Shown here piece after piece: positions 3,034 to 52,824 of a DNA stretch of 64,000 nt. The stretch's first letter is position 1, and every line of letters starts with the position of its first letter. The notes below the pieces were generated by a model. The model saw only the letters and a list, made by a program, of their open reading frames with translations. It had not been told where the DNA came from and did not search any database. Made by a program: the position numbers and the translations under genes. This DNA is from Candidatus Nanoarchaeia archaeon (GTDB lineage: Archaea; Nanobdellota; Nanobdellia; Woesearchaeales; GW2011-AR9): positions 1,444 to 65,443 of the forward strand of contig DATDYP010000005.1 in the NCBI GenBank assembly GCA_035288985.1. The letters are read 5' to 3'.

Positions 3034-5040
3034 ATGTTTGGCAAGCTTAAAGAGAAATTAAAGAGCACCTTATCCATCTTCTCAAAGAAAGCTGAAGAAG
3101 AAGCTGAAGTCAAAGAAGAGGTTATTGAGAAGATAGAAGAGGAAGTACAACAAAAAGAAGTTGTTAAGCCTAGGGAAGTCAAAAAAGAGCCGAAAGCTGA
3201 GAAGGAAAAAAAGGAGCCGATAAAGGAGCCAAAAGAGCCGCGACAAAGAAGTGTACTTTTATTCCACGGCTGGGAAGATAATTCTGAATCAGGCTTCATA
3301 CCTTCTCTGCGGGAGTATTTGAATAAGCATGGCTATAAAGCCAAGTCATTTGACCAGCCTAACACTGAAGCGCCGGAATTTGAACAGTGGTTTTCGTTTG
3401 CGGAAGAGAAGATTCACGATTCAAACAAAGAAGATCTCAGTCTCATCGGGCACAGTATGGGCGGATTGCTGGCTTTAAAAGTAGCGGAAAAATACAACAT
3501 TAAAAAACTCATTCTCATCGCTCCAGTCGGTTCGAGACCATCAGAGAAGTATTTTACAGAGATGGGGAAGAGATTAAACCGGGAAGATCTGGATATTTTC
3601 AAAAAATATCAGAACCAGTCTTTGAATAGTGCAGCAATAAAGAAGAATGCAGTGGAAATTGCCTTTGTCTTTGGACTGAAAGATCCCTGGATAACTGAGG
3701 AGATCAGGAATTTCTACATCGAATCGTTCAAAGATGTTGCAGAGATCCATGTTTTTGACCGCTACCTGCATATGAGCGAGAGCGAAGGTGTTACAGACCT
3801 GCCTATTGTACGAGAACTGTTTGCAAGGAAAATAAAACCTAGTGTGGTTGAGCACAAGGATCAGAAGAAAGAAAAAGTTGTTGAAGAAAAGCCTGAGGAA
3901 AAAGAAGGAGTTAAGGAAAAATCTAAAGAAAAGAAAGTTAAGGAAGAACCAACTGAAGAAAAACCTGAAAAAAAATCATTCTTACACAAATTATTCAGCA
4001 AAAAAGAAGAAAAGGAAGAAGCTGTTGAAGAGAAGAAAGAGACAAAACCTGAGATAAAAAAAGTAGAGGAAAGAGCAGAGCCTCAGGAAGCACCAAAAAT
4101 AAAGATCCAAGAGGAAAAAGGAAAAGAGGTACCAGAAAGAGAAGAAGCAGAAGAGCCCGAAGAAAAAAGATCATTTTTCAGCAAAGTAAAACAATCACTA
4201 ACCACAAAAACGATCTCAGCAGAGAAATTTGAAGAATTATTCTGGGATTTGGAGATAGTGCTTCTGGAAAATAATGTCTCTGTGGAAGTCATTGAAAAGA
4301 TCAAAGAAGACCTGAAAGAGGAGTTAGTAGAAAAACCTCTTCCCAGAGATGTGCCGCGGAAGATTGAAGAGACGCTCAAACAGACGCTGAAAGAGATTCT
4401 AACCTATGAACCCATTGACTTGCTGAAAAAAGCAAACAGCAAGAAAGGGCCGTTTGTGATTGCCGTGTTTGGCATTAATGGGACTGGCAAGACCACCTCC
4501 ATCGCCAAGCTGGCGCACTATTTCCAGAAAAACAATATCTCGGTTGTTCTGGCTGCCTGCGATACCTTCAGAGCTGCAGCAATCCAGCAGTTAGAAGAAC
4601 ATGCTGACAAGCTGGGAGTGAAGATGATCAAGCATGATTACGGCTCGGATGCTGCTGCTGTAGCCTTTGACGCGATCAAGTATGCAGAGAAAAACAATAT
4701 CAAAGTGGTGATGATCGATACTGCTGGAAGGCTGCATTCCAACACCAACCTCATGGCTGAACTGGAAAAAATCATCCGGGTGGCTAAGCCTGACTTTAAG
4801 ATTTTTGTCGGCGAGAGCATCACCGGTAATGATTGTATTGAACAGGCTAAGACTTTCAACAAGCTTGTGGAGATGGACGGTGCTATCTTAACCAAAGCAG
4901 ATGTGGATGAGAAAGGAGGAGCACCGTTGTCTATCTCTTATACAATTAAGAAACCAATCCTGTTTCTAGGCATCGGACAGCGCTACCAGGATTTAGAAGA
5001 ATTTAATGCTGAAGTAATTCTGAAAAGATTAGGGTTTTGA
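3034..5040 (+). CDS. ftsY: Signal recognition particle receptor FtsY with an embedded alpha/beta-hydrolase domain
   Basis: C-terminal NG domain: GINGTGKTT, DTAGR, TKADVD. N-terminal MFGKLKEKLK motif. Residues ~73-265 look like a serine hydrolase (LLFHGW, GHSMGG) and are flanked by K/E-rich linkers. Confidence 0.85.
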   Translation: MFGKLKEKLKSTLSIFSKKAEEEAEVKEEVIEKIEEEVQQKEVVKPREVKKEPKAEKEKKEPIKEPKEPRQRSVLLFHGWEDNSESGFIPSLREYLNKHGYKAKSFDQPNTEAPEFEQWFSFAEEKIHDSNKEDLSLIGHSMGGLLALKVAEKYNIKKLILIAPVGSRPSEKYFTEMGKRLNREDLDIFKKYQNQSLNSAAIKKNAVEIAFVFGLKDPWITEEIRNFYIESFKDVAEIHVFDRYLHMSESEGVTDLPIVRELFARKIKPSVVEHKDQKKEKVVEEKPEEKEGVKEKSKEKKVKEEPTEEKPEKKSFLHKLFSKKEEKEEAVEEKKETKPEIKKVEERAEPQEAPKIKIQEEKGKEVPEREEAEEPEEKRSFFSKVKQSLTTKTISAEKFEELFWDLEIVLLENNVSVEVIEKIKEDLKEELVEKPLPRDVPRKIEETLKQTLKEILTYEPIDLLKKANSKKGPFVIAVFGINGTGKTTSIAKLAHYFQKNNISVVLAACDTFRAAAIQQLEEHADKLGVKMIKHDYGSDAAAVAFDAIKYAEKNNIKVVMIDTAGRLHSNTNLMAELEKIIRVAKPDFKIFVGESITGNDCIEQAKTFNKLVEMDGAILTKADVDEKGGAPLSISYTIKKPILFLGIGQRYQDLEEFNAEVILKRLGF

Positions 5041-6683: not shown

Positions 6684-7145
6684 ATGACTTCACTACCAGA
6701 CTATCTTCGGCAATTGCGCCGCTCCAGAGGACTAAGTGCAGAAAGCTTAAGCTTGATCATACAGGATGCTGTTCCTGCAGATGTGGGAAAAAGATCCGCA
6801 TCAACTATCTGCAGTTATATCTGGGAATTTGAAAAAGGCTTGGGAAGCTTCAATAGAGCGCTGGCAGGGGATGATCCATATAAAACTGTCCTTCTTCTGT
6901 ATGTCGGCGCGCTGAATCCTTCGGAAGAGGAACAAGAGGCACTATCCCAGATGCTTTCTCCTTATGCAGACAGGAAGATGCAACAGAGCTTCTTCAGAGA
7001 AGTTTCACGCTTACAACCAGATCCAGCGCTGCTGCTGACACCTGGAAAGATGTTAGATAAACTTCCTGATGGAGATGATAAAGATCAACTGGTACGAAAA
7101 GTGGAGAGGTTATATCAAAGGTATTCAGGTGTAAAAAAGAGATGA
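6684..7145 (+). CDS. Hypothetical protein with possible N-terminal XRE-like HTH
   Basis: LRQLRRSRGLSAESLSLIIQ resembles an HTH. Otherwise unknown. Confidence 0.3.
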   Translation: MTSLPDYLRQLRRSRGLSAESLSLIIQDAVPADVGKRSASTICSYIWEFEKGLGSFNRALAGDDPYKTVLLLYVGALNPSEEEQEALSQMLSPYADRKMQQSFFREVSRLQPDPALLLTPGKMLDKLPDGDDKDQLVRKVERLYQRYSGVKKR

Positions 7146-7175
7146 TTGTTTAAGGACTGATCTTTATGATTTATT

Positions 7176-8000
7176 TCACTCCCGCATCAAACGGGAATCC
7201 TCCCGGTAATCCTTATATACATCAATAATGTTCAACTGCAGCATCAAGGCAATTTCATCTAACACAGCCTGATCCAAAAATGTCCCTATTCTCAGGGATT
7301 TTCTATCACCCAGGGCTGGCAAGGGCATCTCGGCTGTTACCTTAATAAGATCATCCAATGCAAGGAGATCTTTGCCATCAGCAGTTTCAAGATACAGTTT
7401 ACCCAGCAAGCGCTCTGCGATTTTAACGTTATTTTTAGTTGCCCTTGGAACCTTGAAATTAGAACGCCGTAAAGTTCCATCTACTGCGTTTACAAAACTA
7501 CATCCTAAATCAAGATACAAAATATTTCCCGTTTCAGCAACATAGCGAAAGTTCTGAGCCTTATTAGAAACATCTGACACCAGCAGAAGGTCACGGTATA
7601 ATTTATCCCTTTCCAAGGCGCGCTGTCTTCCTTCAGAATCCTGTACGGGAGGCACTTCCATGATCTCAGAGACGAAGTAGAGAGGCATGCGTTCATTAAT
7701 TCTGGGAATATCACGCGAATCATAACTTACTTTAAGGCTTCCATCATTCACCAAGACATAGAAGTTCGGCGCATGCAATCCTGCCCGTTGAGCAAGGTGA
7801 AGTGTGATCGCTTCATAAATCGGCTGTTCGATGTGATCAAAAGGAAGTTCATCCCCGGTTACAGAAACGCCATTAGCAAATGAAGAACTATGGCAATATT
7901 TGAGATAGGCGTGAAATTCACGATTGCCCACTCTCACAATAGCTTTCCCGCCTGGATTAGAGCCTTTTCTACCAGTATAAAAATGGATGTCTACGGTCAT
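7176..8000 (-). CDS. Hypothetical protein with a kinase-like motif arrangement (atypical PI3/4-kinase or protein-kinase-like fold, speculative)
   Basis: G-rich loop GRKGSNPGGKAIV, then DVSNKAQN and YLDLG, spaced like catalytic and DFG-type motifs. ATG at 8000 preferred over TTG at 8027. Confidence 0.3.
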   Translation of the reverse strand: MTVDIHFYTGRKGSNPGGKAIVRVGNREFHAYLKYCHSSSFANGVSVTGDELPFDHIEQPIYEAITLHLAQRAGLHAPNFYVLVNDGSLKVSYDSRDIPRINERMPLYFVSEIMEVPPVQDSEGRQRALERDKLYRDLLLVSDVSNKAQNFRYVAETGNILYLDLGCSFVNAVDGTLRRSNFKVPRATKNNVKIAERLLGKLYLETADGKDLLALDDLIKVTAEMPLPALGDRKSLRIGTFLDQAVLDEIALMLQLNIIDVYKDYREDSRLMRE

Positions 8001-10701: not shown

Positions 10702-10709
10702 TTTATAAA
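10702..10709. promoter_or_regulatory. Palindromic TATA box (tttataaa), possibly used in both directions (tuf on the minus strand, structured element on the plus strand)
   Basis: 26 nt upstream of the element arm at 10736 on the plus strand. About 75 nt upstream of the tuf ATG on the minus strand. Confidence 0.4.
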
Positions 10710-10735
10710 GATTTCGGTTAGAATAGGAAAACAAA

Positions 10736-10860
10736 GCCAAAGTCGTCGTCATGGCCTTAAGGTTTGCGAGAAAATGTTCACTTTAGTCAAAAATTAAGTC
10801 CTATCCTTTCAAATCTTTACGACGAGGATAGGTCGAGCAAACGGCCAAGACGACTTTGGC
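10736..10860 (+). ncRNA. Candidate structured small RNA (unknown class): 12-bp terminal stem plus GGCC/GGCC clamp. Homolog of the element at 51446-51591.
   Basis: GCCAAAGTCGTC (10736-47) pairs perfectly with GACGACTTTGGC (10849-60). GGCC at 10753-56 and 10843-46. Inner helix GTTTGC/GCAAAC. TATA at -27; T8 run at 10873-80. Strand is uncertain. Confidence 0.35.
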
Positions 10861-10865
10861 AAATA

Positions 10866-11240
10866 TCAACTATTTTTTTTCAAATCCAGATCTTTTCTGA
10901 CTTTATCATAATATTTATGATCTCCCAAATGAAATTCAATATAGATTGAATTCTTCACTTTTACAAACAGAATTCTATACTCGGTATTTTCAATGCTAAA
11001 CGGATAGCGAAAAGTGAGGAGCTCATTAGCAGACCATCCTTTATATTGCCTTTTTGAACCAACAACTATTGGCTGAATTTTCTTCTGAATAACCTCTTCC
11101 AGCCAAGCATAAATCTTCTCAGCTTTCGTCTCTGTTAATAAATTTACAATTTGATCGAAATTCCTTCCCAGAAATCCTACTTCATAATCTTGAGAGATAA
11201 TTGCTTCTACTTTCTTTCTAAAGTTTTTTGGATTAACCAT
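10866..11240 (-). CDS. RelE/ParE-like toxin-fold protein (putative)
   Basis: C-terminal YRILFVKVKNSIYIEFHLGDHKYY resembles the RelE/ParE core. ATGGTTAA overlap with the upstream NTase gene. AT-rich. Confidence 0.4.
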   Translation of the reverse strand: MVNPKNFRKKVEAIISQDYEVGFLGRNFDQIVNLLTETKAEKIYAWLEEVIQKKIQPIVVGSKRQYKGWSANELLTFRYPFSIENTEYRILFVKVKNSIYIEFHLGDHKYYDKVRKDLDLKKNS

Positions 11241-11889
11241 GAGCTGCTTTCACAGCCTCATGAGCCAATTCGTATAAAAAGCTTTGGGCATCATATTCTC
11301 GTAAATCTTTATAATATCCTGCTTGAGTATAAAAGAATCGTTTTGCATACGAAAATTTCATTTCTTTTCTAATAATTTCAATGAGTTCATTTTTGAGGTA
11401 ATCAAGAACCTCCTGATAATCTTTAAAAGAATTAATTTTCTGTGTCAGTTGAAAAGTATCTAACACTTCGCCAGTTCTAAAGTACTCTGTGTACAAAATC
11501 AAGAAACGCACATTTTTGTGGAATTTATCCTTCTCATTCATCAGGGTAGGAATCGCTTCATTAATGACATTCCAATAATCAGAGAAAGTTACTTTGAGCT
11601 GTTTCGTGGTAAGAATATTTTTAGCAATACAGCTTTTAGAGCTGGAATGGTAAAATAAAGAGTACAAATCATTAAAGTCTATTACCGTAATTTTAACTTT
11701 TTTATTTGATATTTTAAACTCCTTTTTGCTTCTGGAAATCACAAAAACATCAATATCGTTATATTTATCCTTGTAGAGGAAAGACCCGGTGATGAAACAG
11801 TATTTAGCTGGAATTTGCTTTAAGAGTTCTTCTGCTAACTTGATTCTTTCTTTGACGAGAGGTCTGTTTTGGGGATTGTAGATGATCAT
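11233..11889 (-). CDS. Minimal nucleotidyltransferase (MNT-like) domain protein
   Basis: FITGSFLYKDKYNDIDVFVI matches the GS...DxD Pol-beta NTase signature. Helical C-terminal half. AT-rich. Confidence 0.55.
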   Translation of the reverse strand: MIIYNPQNRPLVKERIKLAEELLKQIPAKYCFITGSFLYKDKYNDIDVFVISRSKKEFKISNKKVKITVIDFNDLYSLFYHSSSKSCIAKNILTTKQLKVTFSDYWNVINEAIPTLMNEKDKFHKNVRFLILYTEYFRTGEVLDTFQLTQKINSFKDYQEVLDYLKNELIEIIRKEMKFSYAKRFFYTQAGYYKDLREYDAQSFLYELAHEAVKAAHG

Positions 11890-12025
11890 TTGTTACTTAA
11901 AATATACAATCTTTATAAATTTTGCTTAAAAAATATAAAAATATATTAAAAAAGTAAACATACCGCCAGAATAATTTTTATGACTGCCTGATTACTAAAG
12001 CAGAGAAGCTAATCAACGAGGTTGA

Positions 12026-12409
12026 TCAGTAATCATTTCCGTCTATAATAACTCCCCTTTCCACTACCGTCCGTTCAGGCATTCCATTATATCCAGGTTT
12101 GCCATCAAAAGATTTATGCAAGGCATGGAGCAATTCAGGATGCCCAGGGCCGACTTCATTTACTACAAGAACTCGGCTGCTGCCAAGACAATCAGCCTCC
12201 ACCATAACATATGAAGACTGATTCCTGCTAATGGGAGCAACATAATAAGTTTTAGCCATTACCAGGCCGCTAGTTGTGCTAAGACAATTTATGCCTCCTA
12301 AGCTATCTAGGATTCCTTCTAAGTTGCGCATTACACCATGCTGAGGCATCCCTTCTACAGGAAGATGGTGAAAGATTCTTTGTTCATACCTAACTACTCT
12401 TCTTACCAT
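12026..12409 (-). CDS. Hypothetical protein (127 aa), starts 2 nt after the fusA stop
   Basis: ORF only. GC-richer than the adjacent islet. No motif recognised. Confidence 0.4.
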   Translation of the reverse strand: MVRRVVRYEQRIFHHLPVEGMPQHGVMRNLEGILDSLGGINCLSTTSGLVMAKTYYVAPISRNQSSYVMVEADCLGSSRVLVVNEVGPGHPELLHALHKSFDGKPGYNGMPERTVVERGVIIDGNDY

Positions 12410-17358: not shown

Positions 17359-17409
17359 AAAAACATAAATAAGTCCAAATATATATAATTTTCTTGTAAT
17401 GTCAAAATA

Positions 17410-17590
17410 GGACTGGCGGACTACCGGTCAATAGACCGGTAGCATGTTCGCTCCGCTCACCGCCAGCCTAATTTTGAGCACGCCAGTATACCACAAATAA
17501 GTATGTGGTTTGCTTTGCAAACCACCATTCAATAGAATGGTGGTATACTCAGCGTATCAAAGGCCCGAGGTTTAGAAGGATTTGATTTTT
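17410..17590 (+). ncRNA. Candidate structured RNA or regulatory region: cluster of perfect hairpins with mutually exclusive alternatives
   Basis: Hairpins 17421-42 (9 bp, loop AATA), 17505-25 (9 bp) and 17521-44 (10 bp, loop AATA). Enclosing stem CTGGCGG/CCGCCAG. TATA-like atatatataa at 17379-90; T5 at 17586-90. Confidence 0.3.
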
Positions 17591-17669
17591 CAAGGAATCA
17601 AAAAGCCGCAGCAAGCCTGTGTAATATAAAATCATAAATGATATAAAGATATAGGCAATATCCCAATTT

Positions 17670-30114: not shown

Positions 30115-30127
30115 AAAATATTTAAAT
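30115..30127 (+). promoter_or_regulatory. TATA box (aaaatatttaaat) for the tRNA-Arg locus
   Basis: Ends 24 nt upstream of the tRNA 5' end at 30152. Confidence 0.5.
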
Positions 30128-30151
30128 GATAATCAAAATTCTTTTACCTAC

Positions 30152-30245
30152 GGACCCGTAGCCTAACCTGGATAGGGCGACAGGACTATAGTCTCGCCAA
30201 AGCCTCCTAAGCTGTAGGTTGTGAGTTCAAATCTCATCGGGTCCG
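30152..30245 (+). tRNA. tRNA-Arg(CCU) with a 19-nt non-canonical intron (30184-30202, between positions 30/31)
   Basis: Acceptor GGACCCG/CGGGTCC, D stem GCCT/GGGC, T arm GTGAG-TTCAAAT-CTCAT. After intron removal the anticodon arm is ACAGC-CTCCTAA-GCTGT (anticodon 30206-08). Confidence 0.75.
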
Positions 30246-45323: not shown

Positions 45324-45400
45324 ATCTTATTGCAAGAGACAACAAGGAGGATTAAGACCGCGCTCATTCTCAAAAACAGTAGGTCTATGACAGGTGTCCA

Positions 45401-45691
45401 ATGATGAAATTAACGCCAACGGAACTGAAATTGCTCAAGGAAGCGGCTATCGCTGAATATAAGCTCAAGCAAGAAGCAGCAAGTGAACGAAAGAAGTTTA
45501 TGTTCGCCACTTTTGTACACCGGCTTAGAAAAGCGCTTCCCTTCAACATAGCTGTTGGATTAGCGGCATCAGGAATCCTTGTGTATGTTAACGGCTTGAA
45601 ATCTCTGGCTGCCCTGCTGCTGTCAGGGATCATCTGGCTGACTCTCATCTCTACGGTGTTATCAACATTTTTGAAAGAGAATAATAAATAA
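45401..45691 (+). CDS. Hypothetical membrane protein (96 aa)
   Basis: Two hydrophobic helices (FNIAVGLAASGILVYV, LLLSGIIWLTLISTVL). Confidence 0.4.
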   Translation: MMKLTPTELKLLKEAAIAEYKLKQEAASERKKFMFATFVHRLRKALPFNIAVGLAASGILVYVNGLKSLAALLLSGIIWLTLISTVLSTFLKENNK

Positions 45692-45710
45692 GCTCCTTTG
45701 TTGAGAACGG

Positions 45711-45962
45711 CACAGTTCAAAAAGTGAGTGATGGCGGGCCGTTCGCCTCGTGCACACAAAGTGACAACGATCACTTTGGTGCCCCAATAAAGTCGTTGCT
45801 TTATTGCGGGCTTCTTGGTATGTTTATTCTTGCAGGAAGCACCTACCAATACTTGCATAGCTTATGGAATTTAAAATAAATTCCAAATCCTCGACTTCGT
45901 CTGCGGAATCGTTGTTCTCGGTTCACATAGTGGCCTTGCCATCACTCACAAAACGGATTGTG
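45711..45962 (+). ncRNA. Candidate structured RNA (~250 nt, unknown class) with 12-bp terminal stem plus GGCC clamp
   Basis: GTGAGTGATGGC (45724-35) pairs with GCCATCACTCAC (45938-49). GGCC at 45737-40 and 45932-35. Internal hairpins CAAAGTGA/TCACTTTG, AATAAAG/CTTTATT, GGAATTT/AAATTCC. 316-bp non-coding gap. Confidence 0.3.
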
Positions 45963-48266: not shown

Positions 48267-51200
48267 TCACACCTTCTCAAAATAAGCCGTAAACTCCTCT
48301 TCCTTTACCTTGAAAGAATCAATTAGTTTATATTTCTTCTTAGGCTCAGACACGGCAACATCAAAACTTTGAGCGCCAACCTTAGCTTGTATTTCATTCT
48401 TTAAAGGCCCCAGCATCTTTTGCATGCCTGTACTTGTTTTCAAAGATAAGATTATTTTATCCGTCTTCTGCAGGCCAGCTTTCTTCCGCAGCTCCTGGAC
48501 ATTCCTGGCTAATTCCCGCGCAAATCCTTCCGCTTCCAATTCATCAGTGCGTTCAGTATTGACCAAGATAACAGCATCCTTAAACTCAGAAAGCTGATAA
48601 TTACGCGGCGCTTCACGTTCCAGCAGCAGCATCTCTGCAGTAATCTCGACCTGCTTCCCATCAATAGCGAAAGTATATTTTCCGTCTTTCTGCAGATGCT
48701 GAAGAATAGTTTGCGGACTGTCTAAAGCTAACTTTGCAATTATCTGCGGGGACAACTTTCCATAAGCCGGGCCGATCTTGGCATAGTTTGGCTTGACCTT
48801 AGTTTGGATTTCTGCACCATCTTTTACAGCGACAATTGCTTTTGCATTAAGTAGGGAGCATAACACGCCCTGTAATTGTGAAACAACACCCTGTATGGAT
48901 GGATTTTCGCTGATTACCCGAACTTCTTTTACCGGCCATCTAACTCCTAGCTTCGCTTTTTCGCGGGCATGCAAACCTGCTTGGATAATTCCTTGAGCTG
49001 CAGCTATTTGCTCTTCTAATTTTTTGTTTATTTTCTTACCATCCGCTTCGGGCCAGGAATAGTGCATGATACTTTCTTCCTTCATGCCAAATTCTTCTTT
49101 AAGATTCAAGTACATTGCCTCGCAGATGAATGGTGCGATCAGGCTGAACATCTTTATGGTTTCCAAGAAAACGTTCCCGATAGTATATAGACAAGCTTCT
49201 TTTTCCTCATCGCTGCCGGAAGCGCTCTTCTCCCTAACCATCTGGATATAGGTTCTCGATAATTCCAGAAACAGGTTTTCTAAAGGAGCGATAGATTCAT
49301 CCAAGCGGTATTCTTCCAATAGTGCGGTAACCTCTTTGATGGTTGAATGTAATCTGGAGAGAAGGTATTTCTCTTCGTTGTCTAAGACTACTTTTTTCAG
49401 TGTGAAGGGGTTACAGTCATTCTCCCTAGACATGGTCAGCAGAAACTTATGGGTATTCCACAGCACCAGCAGCAGCCTGGACTTGGCAGCACACTCTTCC
49501 CAGCTGAAATTGATATCCTCCCCTGCATTGGTCTGGAACATATAATATCGCAGCACATCAGCGCCATGTTTTTGGACAAGCTCATCCGGAGAAATAATAT
49601 TCCCTAATGATTTGGACATCTTCACCCCGGAAACATCAGTCACAAAGCCATTCATGTAGACATTTTTAAAGGCCGGCTTGCCGAAAGCCAGGAATGAAGC
49701 GACCATCAATAAATTAAACCAGCCGCGGATCTGGTCCTTTCCTTCAAGGATAAAATCTGCTGGAAAAAACTGATCAAATAATTTTTTCTCCTGCGGATAA
49801 TTAAGGCAATTCCAGGAGACTGTACCGGCATCAATCCAGACGTCCAGAACGTCAGGAATTCTGGTATATACTTTTCCCTTTTTGGTGATAGTGATAGTGT
49901 CAATTTCCGGGATGTGCATCCCTTTCATTTTCTGTCCAGACAGTTTTTCCAGTTCAGCGATGCTGCCGACAACAAGATAGTCTCCATCCTTGGCCTGCCA
50001 GATCGGTACTGGCGTTCCCCAGTAGCGCTGTTTGGTGATGGAATTGTCACGTAAATTATCCAGCCAGGAATCAAAGGCATTCTTGGCAGCAGCAGGATTC
50101 CAGTAAATCTTTTTATTTGCCGCCAGCATTTTTTTCTTAAGATCCTCGACTTTGAAGAACCATTGTTTTGTAGTCCTGAAAATGACCGGCTGATGGCTTC
50201 GCTCACCATGCGGATAGTCATGGACGTACGGTTCCTTTGCCAGTAAAGAATGCGCTTCATCTAAAGCCTGGATGAATTTGCGGTCATCTGTCTTTGCTTT
50301 CCAGCCGCTAAACTGGCCGAAATGTTCAAACAAGCCTTCCTCATTAACACAGTTAAAGGGCGGTATGCCGTGGTGATGCCCGACTTCATAGTCCTCCGGG
50401 CCGCAGCCAGGAGCCATGTGCACTAAACCTGTACCGGAAGAATCATCGACATATTCGCTGCTGAGAACGACTGTGAACAGTTTAGGATTTTGCTGCAGCT
50501 CTTTAGGAAGATATTCCTTAATCCCCAGAGGATGCTTGTAGGATTGGCCTTCCAACTCCTTTCCCGGATATTTTTTCTTGATGGAATACTTTTTCACACC
50601 GGCCTTTTGCAGCACCTGAGCAGATAATTTTTCTGCAACTATCCATACTTCACTATCAACAGCAACCTCAACATAGGCCATATCGGGATTGACCATCACG
50701 CCTAAATTTAAGGGAATCGTCCAGGGTGTAGTAGTCCAGACGATAAAGAATTTCGCTGGATTTTTGGCATGCTGAAATTTAACGTAAATTGAAGTGTCGG
50801 TAAGTTTTTTATATTCCAATTCGTGTTTGGCAACAGCAGTCTGCGTTGCCGCATCCCAATGCATGGTTCGTAATCCCTGATATAACCTTCCTTTCTTCTG
50901 CGCTTGTTTGATCAGCCACCATTCTGATTCCATGAATTGTTTCGTAATCGGCTGATACGGATCGGAGAAATCCATAGTAAGACCCAGGCGGATAAAATCT
51001 TCATTCATCCTTTGCATCATTTCGGTGCAAAAGATTTCACATTCCTTCATGAATTTGGCAATACCAAATTTTTCAATATCTTCCTTATTCTTCAGGCCCA
51101 GCTTAGCCATGGTCTTCTGCTCCGTAGGCAGGCCATGCATGTCATAGCCCATCCTGTCCCAGACATTATAGCCCTGCATGCGCTTATAGCGAAGAACGAT

Positions 51201-51389
51201 ATCTTTCATAGAAGTCTGCCAGGCAGTGCCCAGATGAACTCTTCCCGAGGTATAGGGCGGCCCTTCCAGGAAGTAGAACTTCTTGCCATTCTGATTCTGT
51301 TTACGGAGATGCTCCACAGCCTTAATCTTCTGCCAGAATTGAAGTATTTGCGGTTCTAATTGCTGGGGATGGTAGTCAGGAAAGTGCAT
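48267..51389 (-). CDS. ileS: Isoleucyl-tRNA synthetase
   Basis: PPYTSGRVHLGTAW (HIGH-type), KMSKS, editing-domain insert. 1040 aa. Leaderless ATG 23 nt from the TATA at 51413-20. Confidence 0.97.
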   Translation of the reverse strand: MHFPDYHPQQLEPQILQFWQKIKAVEHLRKQNQNGKKFYFLEGPPYTSGRVHLGTAWQTSMKDIVLRYKRMQGYNVWDRMGYDMHGLPTEQKTMAKLGLKNKEDIEKFGIAKFMKECEIFCTEMMQRMNEDFIRLGLTMDFSDPYQPITKQFMESEWWLIKQAQKKGRLYQGLRTMHWDAATQTAVAKHELEYKKLTDTSIYVKFQHAKNPAKFFIVWTTTPWTIPLNLGVMVNPDMAYVEVAVDSEVWIVAEKLSAQVLQKAGVKKYSIKKKYPGKELEGQSYKHPLGIKEYLPKELQQNPKLFTVVLSSEYVDDSSGTGLVHMAPGCGPEDYEVGHHHGIPPFNCVNEEGLFEHFGQFSGWKAKTDDRKFIQALDEAHSLLAKEPYVHDYPHGERSHQPVIFRTTKQWFFKVEDLKKKMLAANKKIYWNPAAAKNAFDSWLDNLRDNSITKQRYWGTPVPIWQAKDGDYLVVGSIAELEKLSGQKMKGMHIPEIDTITITKKGKVYTRIPDVLDVWIDAGTVSWNCLNYPQEKKLFDQFFPADFILEGKDQIRGWFNLLMVASFLAFGKPAFKNVYMNGFVTDVSGVKMSKSLGNIISPDELVQKHGADVLRYYMFQTNAGEDINFSWEECAAKSRLLLVLWNTHKFLLTMSRENDCNPFTLKKVVLDNEEKYLLSRLHSTIKEVTALLEEYRLDESIAPLENLFLELSRTYIQMVREKSASGSDEEKEACLYTIGNVFLETIKMFSLIAPFICEAMYLNLKEEFGMKEESIMHYSWPEADGKKINKKLEEQIAAAQGIIQAGLHAREKAKLGVRWPVKEVRVISENPSIQGVVSQLQGVLCSLLNAKAIVAVKDGAEIQTKVKPNYAKIGPAYGKLSPQIIAKLALDSPQTILQHLQKDGKYTFAIDGKQVEITAEMLLLEREAPRNYQLSEFKDAVILVNTERTDELEAEGFARELARNVQELRKKAGLQKTDKIILSLKTSTGMQKMLGPLKNEIQAKVGAQSFDVAVSEPKKKYKLIDSFKVKEEEFTAYFEKV

Positions 51390-51412
51390 AGAAAGTTGAT
51401 AGTTAAAGGTTT

Positions 51413-51420
51413 TTTATAAA
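51413..51420. promoter_or_regulatory. Palindromic TATA box (tttataaa) between ileS (minus strand) and the structured element (plus strand)
   Basis: 23 nt from the ileS ATG (51389) and 25 nt from the element arm start (51446). Confidence 0.45.
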
Positions 51421-51445
51421 CATTATGCTCTCAGCAGCAATGTAG

Positions 51446-51591
51446 AAAAAGTCGCCGCCTAGGCCATGATGCGAATGAGGAACTGCTTTTCGTAAGACTT
51501 ATTGGTAGTTCAATTCTTTCGAAAGATTGTGCCTTTTGCAAAAAAAAGACGAAGCGAGAATTGACCGAATGAGCGGCCAAGGCGACTTTTT
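51446..51591 (+). ncRNA. Candidate structured small RNA (unknown class), homolog of the element at 10736-10860
   Basis: AAAAAGTCGCC (51446-56) pairs with GGCGACTTTTT (51581-91). GGCC at 51462-65 and 51575-78. Same arm-N5-GGCC...GGCC-AA-arm layout. Ends in T6. Strand is uncertain. Confidence 0.35.
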
Positions 51592-51618
51592 TGAAATTTT
51601 CTACAAAGCGGCTCTGCT

Positions 51619-52824
51619 TTACTTCCCAGCTAGACGGTAATATACGCCAGCCCCTTTCAGTTTTTTTTCTTTTGTTAATGTACCTTCTTTGCTTAAAGAG
51701 CTCATGAAAAGCCTAGTGACTTCATCATTCCACCCTAATAGGCGGGCAACCTCTACAGGTCTTGCTCCCCGGCCATGCTCGTCCATGTACATTGTAATTG
51801 CGGTAGTAATGTCAGATACTCTTTCTTCATGACTTACTGCATTAAGGTGAGGAGAAACCTGGCGATATAATTCAATGCCGGCATCTAGATAAGCAGTAAA
51901 TCGTTGCGCATCCCTCCTGAATTCAGTAAGAAGTTCCCGCGCTTGCTGTAATTCATCACCCTGCTGAAGAGCTTTTCGTAGAAAGGTCACATAGCCTAAG
52001 AATGCCTGTGCAGAGTCATGTATGCTTACAGAACTAGAAGCTTTTTGACCATCTTTATTAGGTCCAGTTGACTGATAGTTAATCAGCCCTAATTTAGCTA
52101 ATTGCGCAATCTGTTTAGAAATAACACTTCCAAGATTTTTCAGCCGTAAGCCTGTCCCTGCAATTTCTGGTATTGTAGAAGCCCCATCTCTGACTGCCTC
52201 AAGAACTCTGACTCTATTATACGGAGCTCTGCTATCACCCTTGGAATGAGTAGAGGACAATACTGAATAAAGAGAGATATTGTTATCAACTGCAAATTTA
52301 AGGGAGTACGCTGCTAAAGGCTGTCCATACTTGCTGCCTGCTTCTGAGATGACAAACTGTTTTCTTGCAAGTCCTGGGATTAATAAGCGGTTGTACTCCT
52401 CGCTGGCAACAAGCCCAATATTCACCAACGATTGATTACAGTATTCTCCCATTACATGAATACCTGGTAACTGAACTGTGGTTTGTCTTTCAATACGTCT
52501 CCAGATATCAGTAGGACTGGCAGGAAACCCATTAAGAGCAAGAACAACTGCCTGTTTCAATTCAGAATTGACAGAATTGAGTACCGCTTCCAGGCGCACT
52601 TCCTCATTTTCTGGAAAGTCATGGACGGTCCTGTCAACAAGAAGATCAGCAAATTCTTCAACTGTAATAATTCCAGCAACTCTGGCCTGCTGTAAATGCC
52701 TGAATAAAGCCTTGCTGCCTAATTGGTATCTATCTCTCAGATCTGAAAAAGAGGTCCCGCTGGTAAAATCTGCTGCTATCCCTAAAATAAGATCCTGCGT
52801 ATCCATAGCCTTATTTTCTTTCAT
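51619..52824 (-). CDS. Hypothetical protein with probable winged-helix domains
   Basis: HTH-like SKALFRHLQQARVAGIIT and a C-terminal VEVARLLGWNDEVTRLFMSSLSKEGTL. Otherwise unknown. Confidence 0.3.
   Translation of the reverse strand: MKENKAMDTQDLILGIAADFTSGTSFSDLRDRYQLGSKALFRHLQQARVAGIITVEEFADLLVDRTVHDFPENEEVRLEAVLNSVNSELKQAVVLALNGFPASPTDIWRRIERQTTVQLPGIHVMGEYCNQSLVNIGLVASEEYNRLLIPGLARKQFVISEAGSKYGQPLAAYSLKFAVDNNISLYSVLSSTHSKGDSRAPYNRVRVLEAVRDGASTIPEIAGTGLRLKNLGSVISKQIAQLAKLGLINYQSTGPNKDGQKASSSVSIHDSAQAFLGYVTFLRKALQQGDELQQARELLTEFRRDAQRFTAYLDAGIELYRQVSPHLNAVSHEERVSDITTAITMYMDEHGRGARPVEVARLLGWNDEVTRLFMSSLSKEGTLTKEKKLKGAGVYYRLAGK

Follow-up and report, generated by a model that had tools for sequence, protein, structure and literature searches.

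The DNA analysed here, referred to as the window, is an archaeal stretch of 64 kb with a GC content of 42% that contains TATA boxes and an intron-containing tRNA. The nearest proteins to the product of its ileS gene carry the names Nanoarchaeota, Nanoarchaeia or Woesearchaeota. The region under study is an intergenic segment (51390-51618) flanked by two minus-strand genes, ileS and an ORF of 401 aa. It holds a palindromic TATA box, separated by 23 nt from the ileS ATG, and an element of ~175 bp (~51436-51610) that folds as a hairpin, the first arm of which begins 25 nt beyond the same TATA box. Both distances had already been given correctly in an initial annotation of this region. The features are listed in Table 1, where copy 2 is the element beside ileS.

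Table 1. Features of the ileS locus and of the other copies in the window (P1 to P5 are the helices of the fold; L numbers, here and in the text, are our handles for loci)
Feature	Position	Strand	Remarks
Copy 1, older family copy	10727-10860	+	P1 GCCAAAGTCGTC (10736-10747) with GACGACTTTGGC (10849-10860)
Decayed third copy	45786-45901	-	Head TTGGTAGGTGCTTCCTGC...ATACCAAGAAGC, 84% identical over 44 nt to L156
ileS	48267-51389	-	ATG at 51389; leaderless
Palindromic TATA box TTTATAAA	51413-51420		ileS promoter; landmark for insertion; possible plus-strand start signal for the element
6-nt spacer, TATA box to target-site duplication	51421-51426		BRE position of the ileS promoter, intact
Left decayed 9-bp target-site duplication GCTCTCAGC	51427-51435		Fits the family rule (ends 15 nt before GTCG)
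Left terminal inverted repeat, outer part AGCAATGTA	51436-51444	+	Degenerate; family consensus GGCTCTGTA
P1, 5' strand GAAAAAGTCGCC	51445-51456	+	Inner part of the left inverted repeat; 12 pairs
Internal loop GCCTA	51457-51461	+	Family GYCNN; faces AA at 51579-51580
P2, 5' strand GGCC ("clamp")	51462-51465	+	Scored in family alignments
5-nt bulge ATGAT	51466-51470	+	In the family A-rich, usually AAGAT
P3, 5' strand GCGAATGAGG	51471-51480	+	Partner 51565-51574; 6 Watson-Crick and two tandem sheared G·A pairs
Variable head	51481-51564	+	GAAC, mini-hairpin P4, TTGGTAG, helix P5
Mini-hairpin P4, UC-GUAA-GA	51490-51497	+	Within the head
Helix P5	51510-51517 with 51557-51564	+	Extra insert holds both palindromes
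P3, 3' strand CCGAATGAGC	51565-51574	+	Pairs with 51471-51480
P2, 3' strand GGCC, then AA loop	51575-51580	+	Family alignments
P1, 3' strand GGCGACTTTTTT	51581-51592	+	T6 run 51587-51592, an archaeal oligo-T termination signal
Right terminal inverted repeat, outer part: GAAAT insert, TTTC, TACAAAGCG	51593-51610	+	Consensus GAGAT-TTTC-TACAGAGCC
Right decayed duplication GCTCTGCTT	51611-51619		Abuts the stop codon of the 401-aa ORF; family rule 24 nt after CGAC
401-aa ORF	51619-52824	-	Ends 8 nt from the element
Inverted-repeat end, as search string			GGCTCTGTAGAAAAAGTCG

The annotation had described the hairpin as the second copy of an element at 10736-10860, with compensatory substitutions preserving the stem. 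The arms AAAAAGTCGCC (51446-51456) and GGCGACTTTTT (51581-51591) are present and align with CCAAAGTCGTC and GACGACTTTGG of the 10736-10860 copy, and the three differences between the 5' arms (C>A, C>A and T>C) are matched by G>T, G>T and A>G in the 3' arms, all pairs being Watson-Crick. The N5-GGCC and GGCC-AA segments common to both copies, the T6 run and the palindromes CTTTCGAAAG (51516-51525) and TTTTGCAAAA (51535-51544) were likewise found as described. The proposed direct repeat CGAATGAG does occur twice, at 51472-51479 and 51566-51573, but its two occurrences are really the two strands of one helix, GCGAAUGAGG/CCGAAUGAGC, in which Watson-Crick pairs are combined with two tandem sheared G·A pairs. 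The similarity reported for the 3' interior of the two copies proved weak, and the boundaries had been drawn too narrowly: the helix begins one base earlier (G51445-U51592), and the annotated end had missed both an outer inverted repeat, which extends the element to ~51436-51610, and the flanking direct repeats that show its mobility. The 15-nt pattern of the 5' side occurs at only these two sites within the window, and both copies fold better than 200 of 200 shuffles on either strand (z = -3.0 and -5.9).

Copy 2 fits the geometry of the family described below and is old. Its outer inverted repeat (AGCAATGTA/TACAAAGCG) contains three mismatches, and its duplication (GCTCTCAGC versus GCTCTGCTT) is degenerate, with 5 of 9 bases matching, or 7 when a 2-nt indel is admitted; what survives is GCTCT(ca)GC on the left and GCTCTGC on the right. 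In copy 1, GTCG lies at the same 31-nt offset from a TATA box (10704-10711) as in copy 2; neither its outer repeat nor its duplication can still be recognised, yet the fold is kept. Next to copy 1 are three unannotated minus-strand ORFs (10866-12409; 124, 218 and 127 aa) without a Pfam hit, and the usually contiguous row of EF-2, EF-1alpha and S10 is interrupted by these ORFs and copy 1. The third copy no longer has its ends or the GGCC clamp. It overlaps the beginning of a 157-aa ORF (45385-45858, minus strand) that is itself doubtful and on which two gene callers disagree.

We scanned species-representative genomes with a search pattern in which the covarying positions were left free. The scan revealed 29 true copies in low-GC MAGs of Woese-, Pace- and Nanoarchaeota, often several per MAG, and its remaining matches fell by chance in high-GC bacteria. 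Scanning metagenomes yielded 103 stretches, the majority of them from groundwater and sediment; other contigs of the window's own sample were among them. The genome and metagenome copies collapse to 106 distinct cores, and the claim that the hairpin is a second copy of a repeated element was thus borne out by more than 100 distinct family copies. The elements are ~145-175 bp long, with cores of 109-137 nt, and there is no ORF inside; the copy density here is 30-50 per Mb. A viral origin was rejected, as all seven matches on viral contigs were high-GC chance matches.

All of the copies share a 12-bp helix P1, an internal loop GYCNN opposite AA, the helix P2 (GGCC/GGCC), an A-rich 5-nt bulge, a helix P3 of 6-12 bp, in which fixed positions are often taken by one or two tandem G·A pairs, and a three-way head composed of the mini-hairpin P4 and a 7-9-bp helix P5. 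Family forms of 83 nt and 50 nt retain the handle only. In a MAFFT alignment of the 29 copies, P1-P3 were 92.6% paired, compared with 80% in shuffles; in 94 distinct copies aligned to a model, an alignment that is biased toward the structure to which the model was fitted, they were 94.1% paired, and 16 of 22 pairs covaried. No shuffle reached either value, and slid partners gave no more than 45% with the 29 copies and 53% at most. P1, with 12 pairs, was 96% paired and 9 of its pairs covaried, while all six scored pairs of P3 covaried with both sides changing. Among the divergent copies found by the model only, some have a wholly different P1 that still pairs (AGGAACACCACC/GGUGGUGUUCCU and GUUAAGUCUGCC/GGCAGACUUAAC), and in one divergent copy P2 has changed to AGCC/GGCU with its pairing kept.

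These results support the view of the initial annotation that the closing helix is under constraint, since its pairing is kept across the family copies. The correlation of the arm differences also extends to more copies: the arm position that had been left free in the pattern is C-G in 24 and U-A in 5 of the 29 copies, with none broken, and among the 94 copies it is C-G in 70 and U-A in 21. The compensatory changes had been taken to indicate either RNA structure or terminal inverted repeats, and there is evidence for both readings; two of the three changes, however, lie in the A-run/T-run end, and these need no RNA, because a transposon would keep this end symmetric.

The ends of the element carry the evidence for its mobility. 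Most copies have terminal inverted repeats of ~21-30 bp, GGCTCTGTAGAAAAAGTCGYC and GRCGACTTTTT(insert)TTTCTACAGAGCC, the outer part being GGCTCTGTAG...CTACAGAGCC. Immediately outside the latter there are direct repeats that differ at every locus, for example TTTTTCACC, ACAGAAATC, CTTCAGTGG and CTTTTTAAC. An exact flanking repeat of at least 9 nt was found in 49 of 102 copies but in only 7 of 508 control pairs, in which the flanks of different copies were combined. The modal length of the duplication is 9; the left repeat ends 15 nt before GTCG, and the right repeat starts 24 nt after CGAC, or 15 nt after it where the right-end insert is lacking. The copies lie at many unrelated sites, with several per contig, and the window alone holds two intact copies and one remnant. 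The flanking repeats are target-site duplications, and the hairpin upstream of ileS is a copy of a family of small non-coding mobile elements (MITEs) in DPANN archaea. The "GGCC-clamp" stem consists of P1, as the inner inverted repeat, and a conserved sub-terminal segment (the loop GYCNN/AA and P2) to which the transposase presumably binds. Correlated change at both ends is what would be expected of transposon ends. In most copies (for example at window 51593-51601 and in L014 and L128) the right inverted repeat contains a 9-nt insert, GAGATTTTC, that duplicates the preceding TTTTC, and the A-run of the 5' side can therefore pair with either of two U-runs; the GTCGTC-type copies (L040, L059, L133 and L212) have no insert and a continuous repeat.

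A family of immobile genes for small non-coding RNAs that have a promoter and a terminator of their own, like tRNA or Y-RNA paralogues, would also account for the strong covariation, for the intergenic copies with a TATA box at a fixed distance and a T-run after them, for the more than 10 subfamilies of heads, each present in several species, and for the same site being occupied in two species (L014 and L059). This model was abandoned in view of the flanking 9-bp repeats, which vary from copy to copy, unlike a conserved processing signal. About half of the family has locus-specific 9-bp direct repeats around the inverted repeats, the TATA boxes lie outside these repeats and half of them demonstrably belong to a neighbouring leaderless gene, and the element is missing at the ileS locus of relatives. 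We consider the immobile gene family very improbable.

The ileS locus of the four closest relatives (ileS proteins 73-76% identical) lacks the element. There, the DUF7343 gene is followed by ileS directly or with one unrelated ORF between them, and all four have a TATA box of their own 22-23 nt before the ileS ATG. The flanking sequences of these relatives have diverged too far for a base-by-base alignment of the empty site, and among the collected family loci no pair of filled and empty sites was alignable base by base. In ~0.9 Mb of family loci, a search that was not systematic found no transposase gene with the same inverted repeats, and no pairs of inverted repeats 0.3-6 kb apart with a matching duplication were found. 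The 401-aa ORF, which the closest relatives lack at this position, gives no Pfam hit and by eye resembles winged-helix repeats; on these grounds, and for want of similarity to the ORF found there in L232, it was rejected as the transposase. The L232 ORF (432 aa, 1648-2946) lies between the DUF7343 gene and ileS and gives Pfam hits to sigma-70 regions 2 and 4, and the spot between these two genes looks like a variable insertion site.

The same loci bear on whether the hairpin is a cis-acting part of one of the two genes that enclose it, serving either ileS, as a regulatory leader or upstream element, or the 401-aa ORF, as its 3' UTR or terminator. Its position between both genes fits such a role, and read on the minus strand it would form the 3' UTR of the 401-aa gene, ending in a T5 run. 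However, the leaderless ileS is transcribed away from the element, relatives have the same kind of ileS promoter without it, the neighbours of family members are unrelated, and the constraint is on the plus strand, which is antisense to that of the 401-aa gene. A cis-acting role is therefore scarcely credible. The suggestion that every family member might sit next to a translation-related gene also failed, because the neighbouring genes are unrelated to one another: the TATA boxes that adjoin the copies are those of unrelated genes, and recurrent neighbours are explained by synteny only. A constant protein partner was rejected likewise, as clustering of the neighbours gave nothing but synteny.

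What the insertion sites do have in common is a TATA box. We rebuilt the pre-insertion sites of the copies with clear duplications, and in these a left-side TATA box lies 5-7 nt from the duplication in 22 of 28 cases, in 17 of the 28 at exactly 6 nt, and a right-side TATA box lies at 5-7 nt in 12 of 17. At least one side has a TATA box at this distance in 37 of 44 copies: the left alone in 25, the right alone in 10, and both sides in 2. Across the family, the TATA peak ends ~30 nt before GTCG. In addition, for 32 of 64 left-side TATA boxes a divergent ORF of 60 aa or more has its ATG 21-25 nt beyond the box. The adjoining TATA boxes are real promoters, half of those on the left being in the same leaderless arrangement as at ileS. 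The back-to-back geometry with the leaderless ileS promoter that had been noted at this locus is thus real and represents a family-wide rule; the element stands just outside the BRE/TATA core of its host, which is why it had been seen as "back-to-back with the ileS promoter". At ileS, integration upstream of the leaderless gene would have left the BRE/TATA core promoter intact.

The interior of the element was compared for signs of the strand on which selection acts. In P3, 210 G·A oppositions stand against 12 C/T oppositions, the sheared G·A pairs being found on one strand only, which indicates that the constraint acts on the plus strand as a single strand. P4 switches among C-GUAA-G (34 copies), G-CUUG-C (12) and C-UUUA-G (21), and in P5, 26 of the 28 GTGCnnn...nnnGCAC heads have variable triplets that complement each other, with 7 pair combinations. 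These observations suggest that the interior (P3 with its sheared G·A pairs, P4 and P5) has been selected as a single plus-strand molecule, most likely RNA. The explanation that we favour for the ileS locus, and hold to be probable, is that a MITE of ~175 bp, its target-site duplication now decayed, inserted 6 bp upstream of the ileS TATA box and that its interior was selected, likely as a plus-strand RNA.

The fold might instead matter without any RNA role, the hairpin acting as DNA, for example in a single-stranded or cruciform state while the element transposes or replicates, or being inherited from master copies, with transcription incidental. Mobility needs only the inverted repeats and duplications, the orientation relative to the adjoining TATA box is biased only ~2:1 (27 left versus 12 right), and tandem sheared G·A pairs and GNA-type loops form in DNA too. 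Furthermore, P3 is 97.6% paired in copies with exact duplications, which are presumably younger, compared with 89% in the others, as would fit a slow decay after insertion; it could be the master copies, as they spread, whose fold is under selection, and not the resident ones. On the other hand, cut-and-paste transposons with fixed duplications are not known to require an internal single-strand structure, and the excess of G·A over C/T oppositions, together with tetraloop switches matched to the closing pair, is typical of RNA. P1-P5 also persist in copies whose outer repeat and duplication are lost or whose ends are not recognisable (copy 1 of the window, L015 and L059), and the external TATA box places the predicted start on the first base of P1. 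We therefore regard a fold maintained without an RNA role as unlikely.

The predicted start was calibrated on a tRNA of the window. This plus-strand tRNA (30119-30245) has a 28-nt intron, and its anticodon was not named by ARAGORN. Its TATA box ATTTAAAT ends 24 nt before position +1 (30152), which makes the tRNA essentially leaderless, as are those of Nanoarchaeum, which has no RNase P. In the element, the distance from the TATA box to P1 is 6 + 9 + 9 = 24 nt, equal to this tRNA-calibrated distance. If selection acted on a plus-strand RNA, as we favour, its 5' end would be the first base of P1, ~24 nt away from the adjoining TATA box (for copy 2, at a predicted 51444/51445), and it would stop at the T-run that forms the other strand of P1. 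A transcript from a captured TATA box that begins and ends in P1 would be a closed, nuclease-resistant hairpin. As to its role, the most economical guess is that it would confine divergent transcription inside the element and so render the insertion harmless; it is possible that the RNA is actually used by the element or its host. Initiation on the plus strand from the adjoining TATA box is an assumption, since the BRE faces the other way; nor could a neighbouring TATA box drive sense transcription in every case, because about a quarter of the copies have a TATA box only on the right.

A more specific proposal, which we put forward tentatively and think rather doubtful, is that the family represents promoter-homing mobile RNA genes, which land one BRE-width (6 bp) upstream of a TATA box and are expressed as the captured TBP/TFB site, set apart by the 9-bp duplication and the 9-bp outer repeat, fires divergently at the base where the closing helix begins. 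If it is true, the element would have no promoter of its own and be expressed wherever it inserts, and an RNA with a shared "handle" and more than 10 diverged "heads" would be functional for the element or the host.

The element was also compared with known RNAs. Rfam 15, with its models of 5S rRNA, tRNA, C/D and H/ACA sRNAs, SRP, RNase P, Y RNA and ribozymes, gave no hit at the gathering score and none at E up to 10 for copy 2 or up to 5 for 14 diverse members, and ARAGORN reported no tRNA at the element. A 5S rRNA, suggested by the size, the three-way junction and the AAGUUAAG and GAAC motifs, was rejected in view of the many divergent paralogues per genome and the lack of a model hit, and the tRNA-like, split-tRNA and minihelix readings of GGCUCUGUAG...CUACAGAGCC were rejected for lack of D, T and anticodon arms. 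In a K-turn or box C/D RNA the tandem G·A pairs immediately follow a 3-nt bulge, and RUGAUGA and CUGA boxes are needed; here the tandem G·A is enclosed by Watson-Crick pairs within P3, at least 2 bp separate it from the 5-nt bulge, and the boxes are unconserved. The archaeal bulge-helix-bulge has a central 4-bp helix with a 3-nt bulge 5' of it on each strand, whereas around GGCC the 5' strand carries both larger loops and the 3' strand just AA, on the 3' side, so that the handedness is wrong. The H/ACA, hammerhead and hairpin-ribozyme readings failed on geometry or box order.

Among mobile elements, fixed 9-bp duplications with symmetric AT-flanked targets are known from IS903 of the IS5 family and from IS10 and IS50 of the IS4 family. 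The present family resembles these in its fixed 9-bp duplication and its symmetric target preference, with a TATA-like box 6 nt to either side, and differs in that no transposase or matching full-length IS was identified here. Integration of the yeast retrotransposon Ty3 is tethered to TFIIIB, which comprises TBP and a TFB homologue. The likeness to Ty3 is one of working only, namely a base-precise distance from a TBP-bound promoter element that leaves the promoter usable; Ty3 is a retroelement and inserts at the transcription start, whereas the family is DNA transposon-like and inserts on the upstream side, at ~-39 to -47. Hairpin-forming MITEs are well known, including Correia in Neisseria, ERIC/IRU in enterobacteria, RUP/BOX in streptococci and the SM1-type in archaea. 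Like the family, they are non-coding and intergenic, ~110-180 bp long and present in many copies, with inverted repeats and target duplications, and the whole element can fold as a hairpin when transcribed. The family is set apart from them by its 9-bp duplication, three-way-junction interior, sheared G·A pairs and tetraloop switches, and by the many diverged heads under one pair of ends and the 6-bp spacing to the TATA box; we found none of these features described for the named hairpin MITEs. Prokaryotic hairpin MITEs are also covered by a review (PMC10969869).

In a recent census (PMC11602168, NAR 2024), a Woesearchaea genome is among the most MITE-dense archaeal genomes, with 105 per Mb, a density that fits the one observed for the family here. 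As far as its text was read, the census gives counts only, with no structure, target-site rule or family. In the literature we found no description of the family, its fold or TATA-spaced insertion, this bulk census being the only related report found. The present results explain a conspicuous, recurrent intergenic hairpin of DPANN archaea (Woese-, Pace- and Nanoarchaeota), which might otherwise be mistaken for a new RNA gene or for an element that regulates translation genes. Insertion beside TATA boxes with base precision, if it holds, would be, to our knowledge, an undescribed form of promoter-directed integration of a DNA element in Archaea and would offer a handle on the recognition of TBP/TFB-bound or TATA-shaped DNA. 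The copies are natural markers of real promoters and leaderless genes in unculturable organisms, and their strand-specific covarying fold raises the question of whether functional RNA is carried by mobile elements in minimal genomes.

Elsewhere in the window, a GC-rich intergenic region on the plus strand (17404-17600) contains the strongly self-complementary segments GGACTGGCGG...CCGCCAGCC, ACCACAAATAAGTATGTGGT and AACCACCATTCAATAGAATGGTGGT; Rfam gave no hit on it at E up to 1, and it may hold one or more unannotated structured RNAs. Within the family, some copies are clustered: L199 has copies at 6982-7107 and 7145-7294, L142 at 1819-1941 and 3052-3195, and L213 has three ends within 3.3 kb. 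The second copy of L199 has a completely different P1 and an unrecognisable outer repeat, which suggests several end-types and possibly several mobilising enzymes. Finally, two different members, L091 (3293-3412) and L135 (11524-11642), carry the same insert of ~40 nt, AGGTAGTTGAGCGAGCCAGAG(G)CGAGCTCTGGCAAGT..., which splits the 5' handle between GTCGCCGC and GCC and may be a nested mini-insertion or an intron-like piece.
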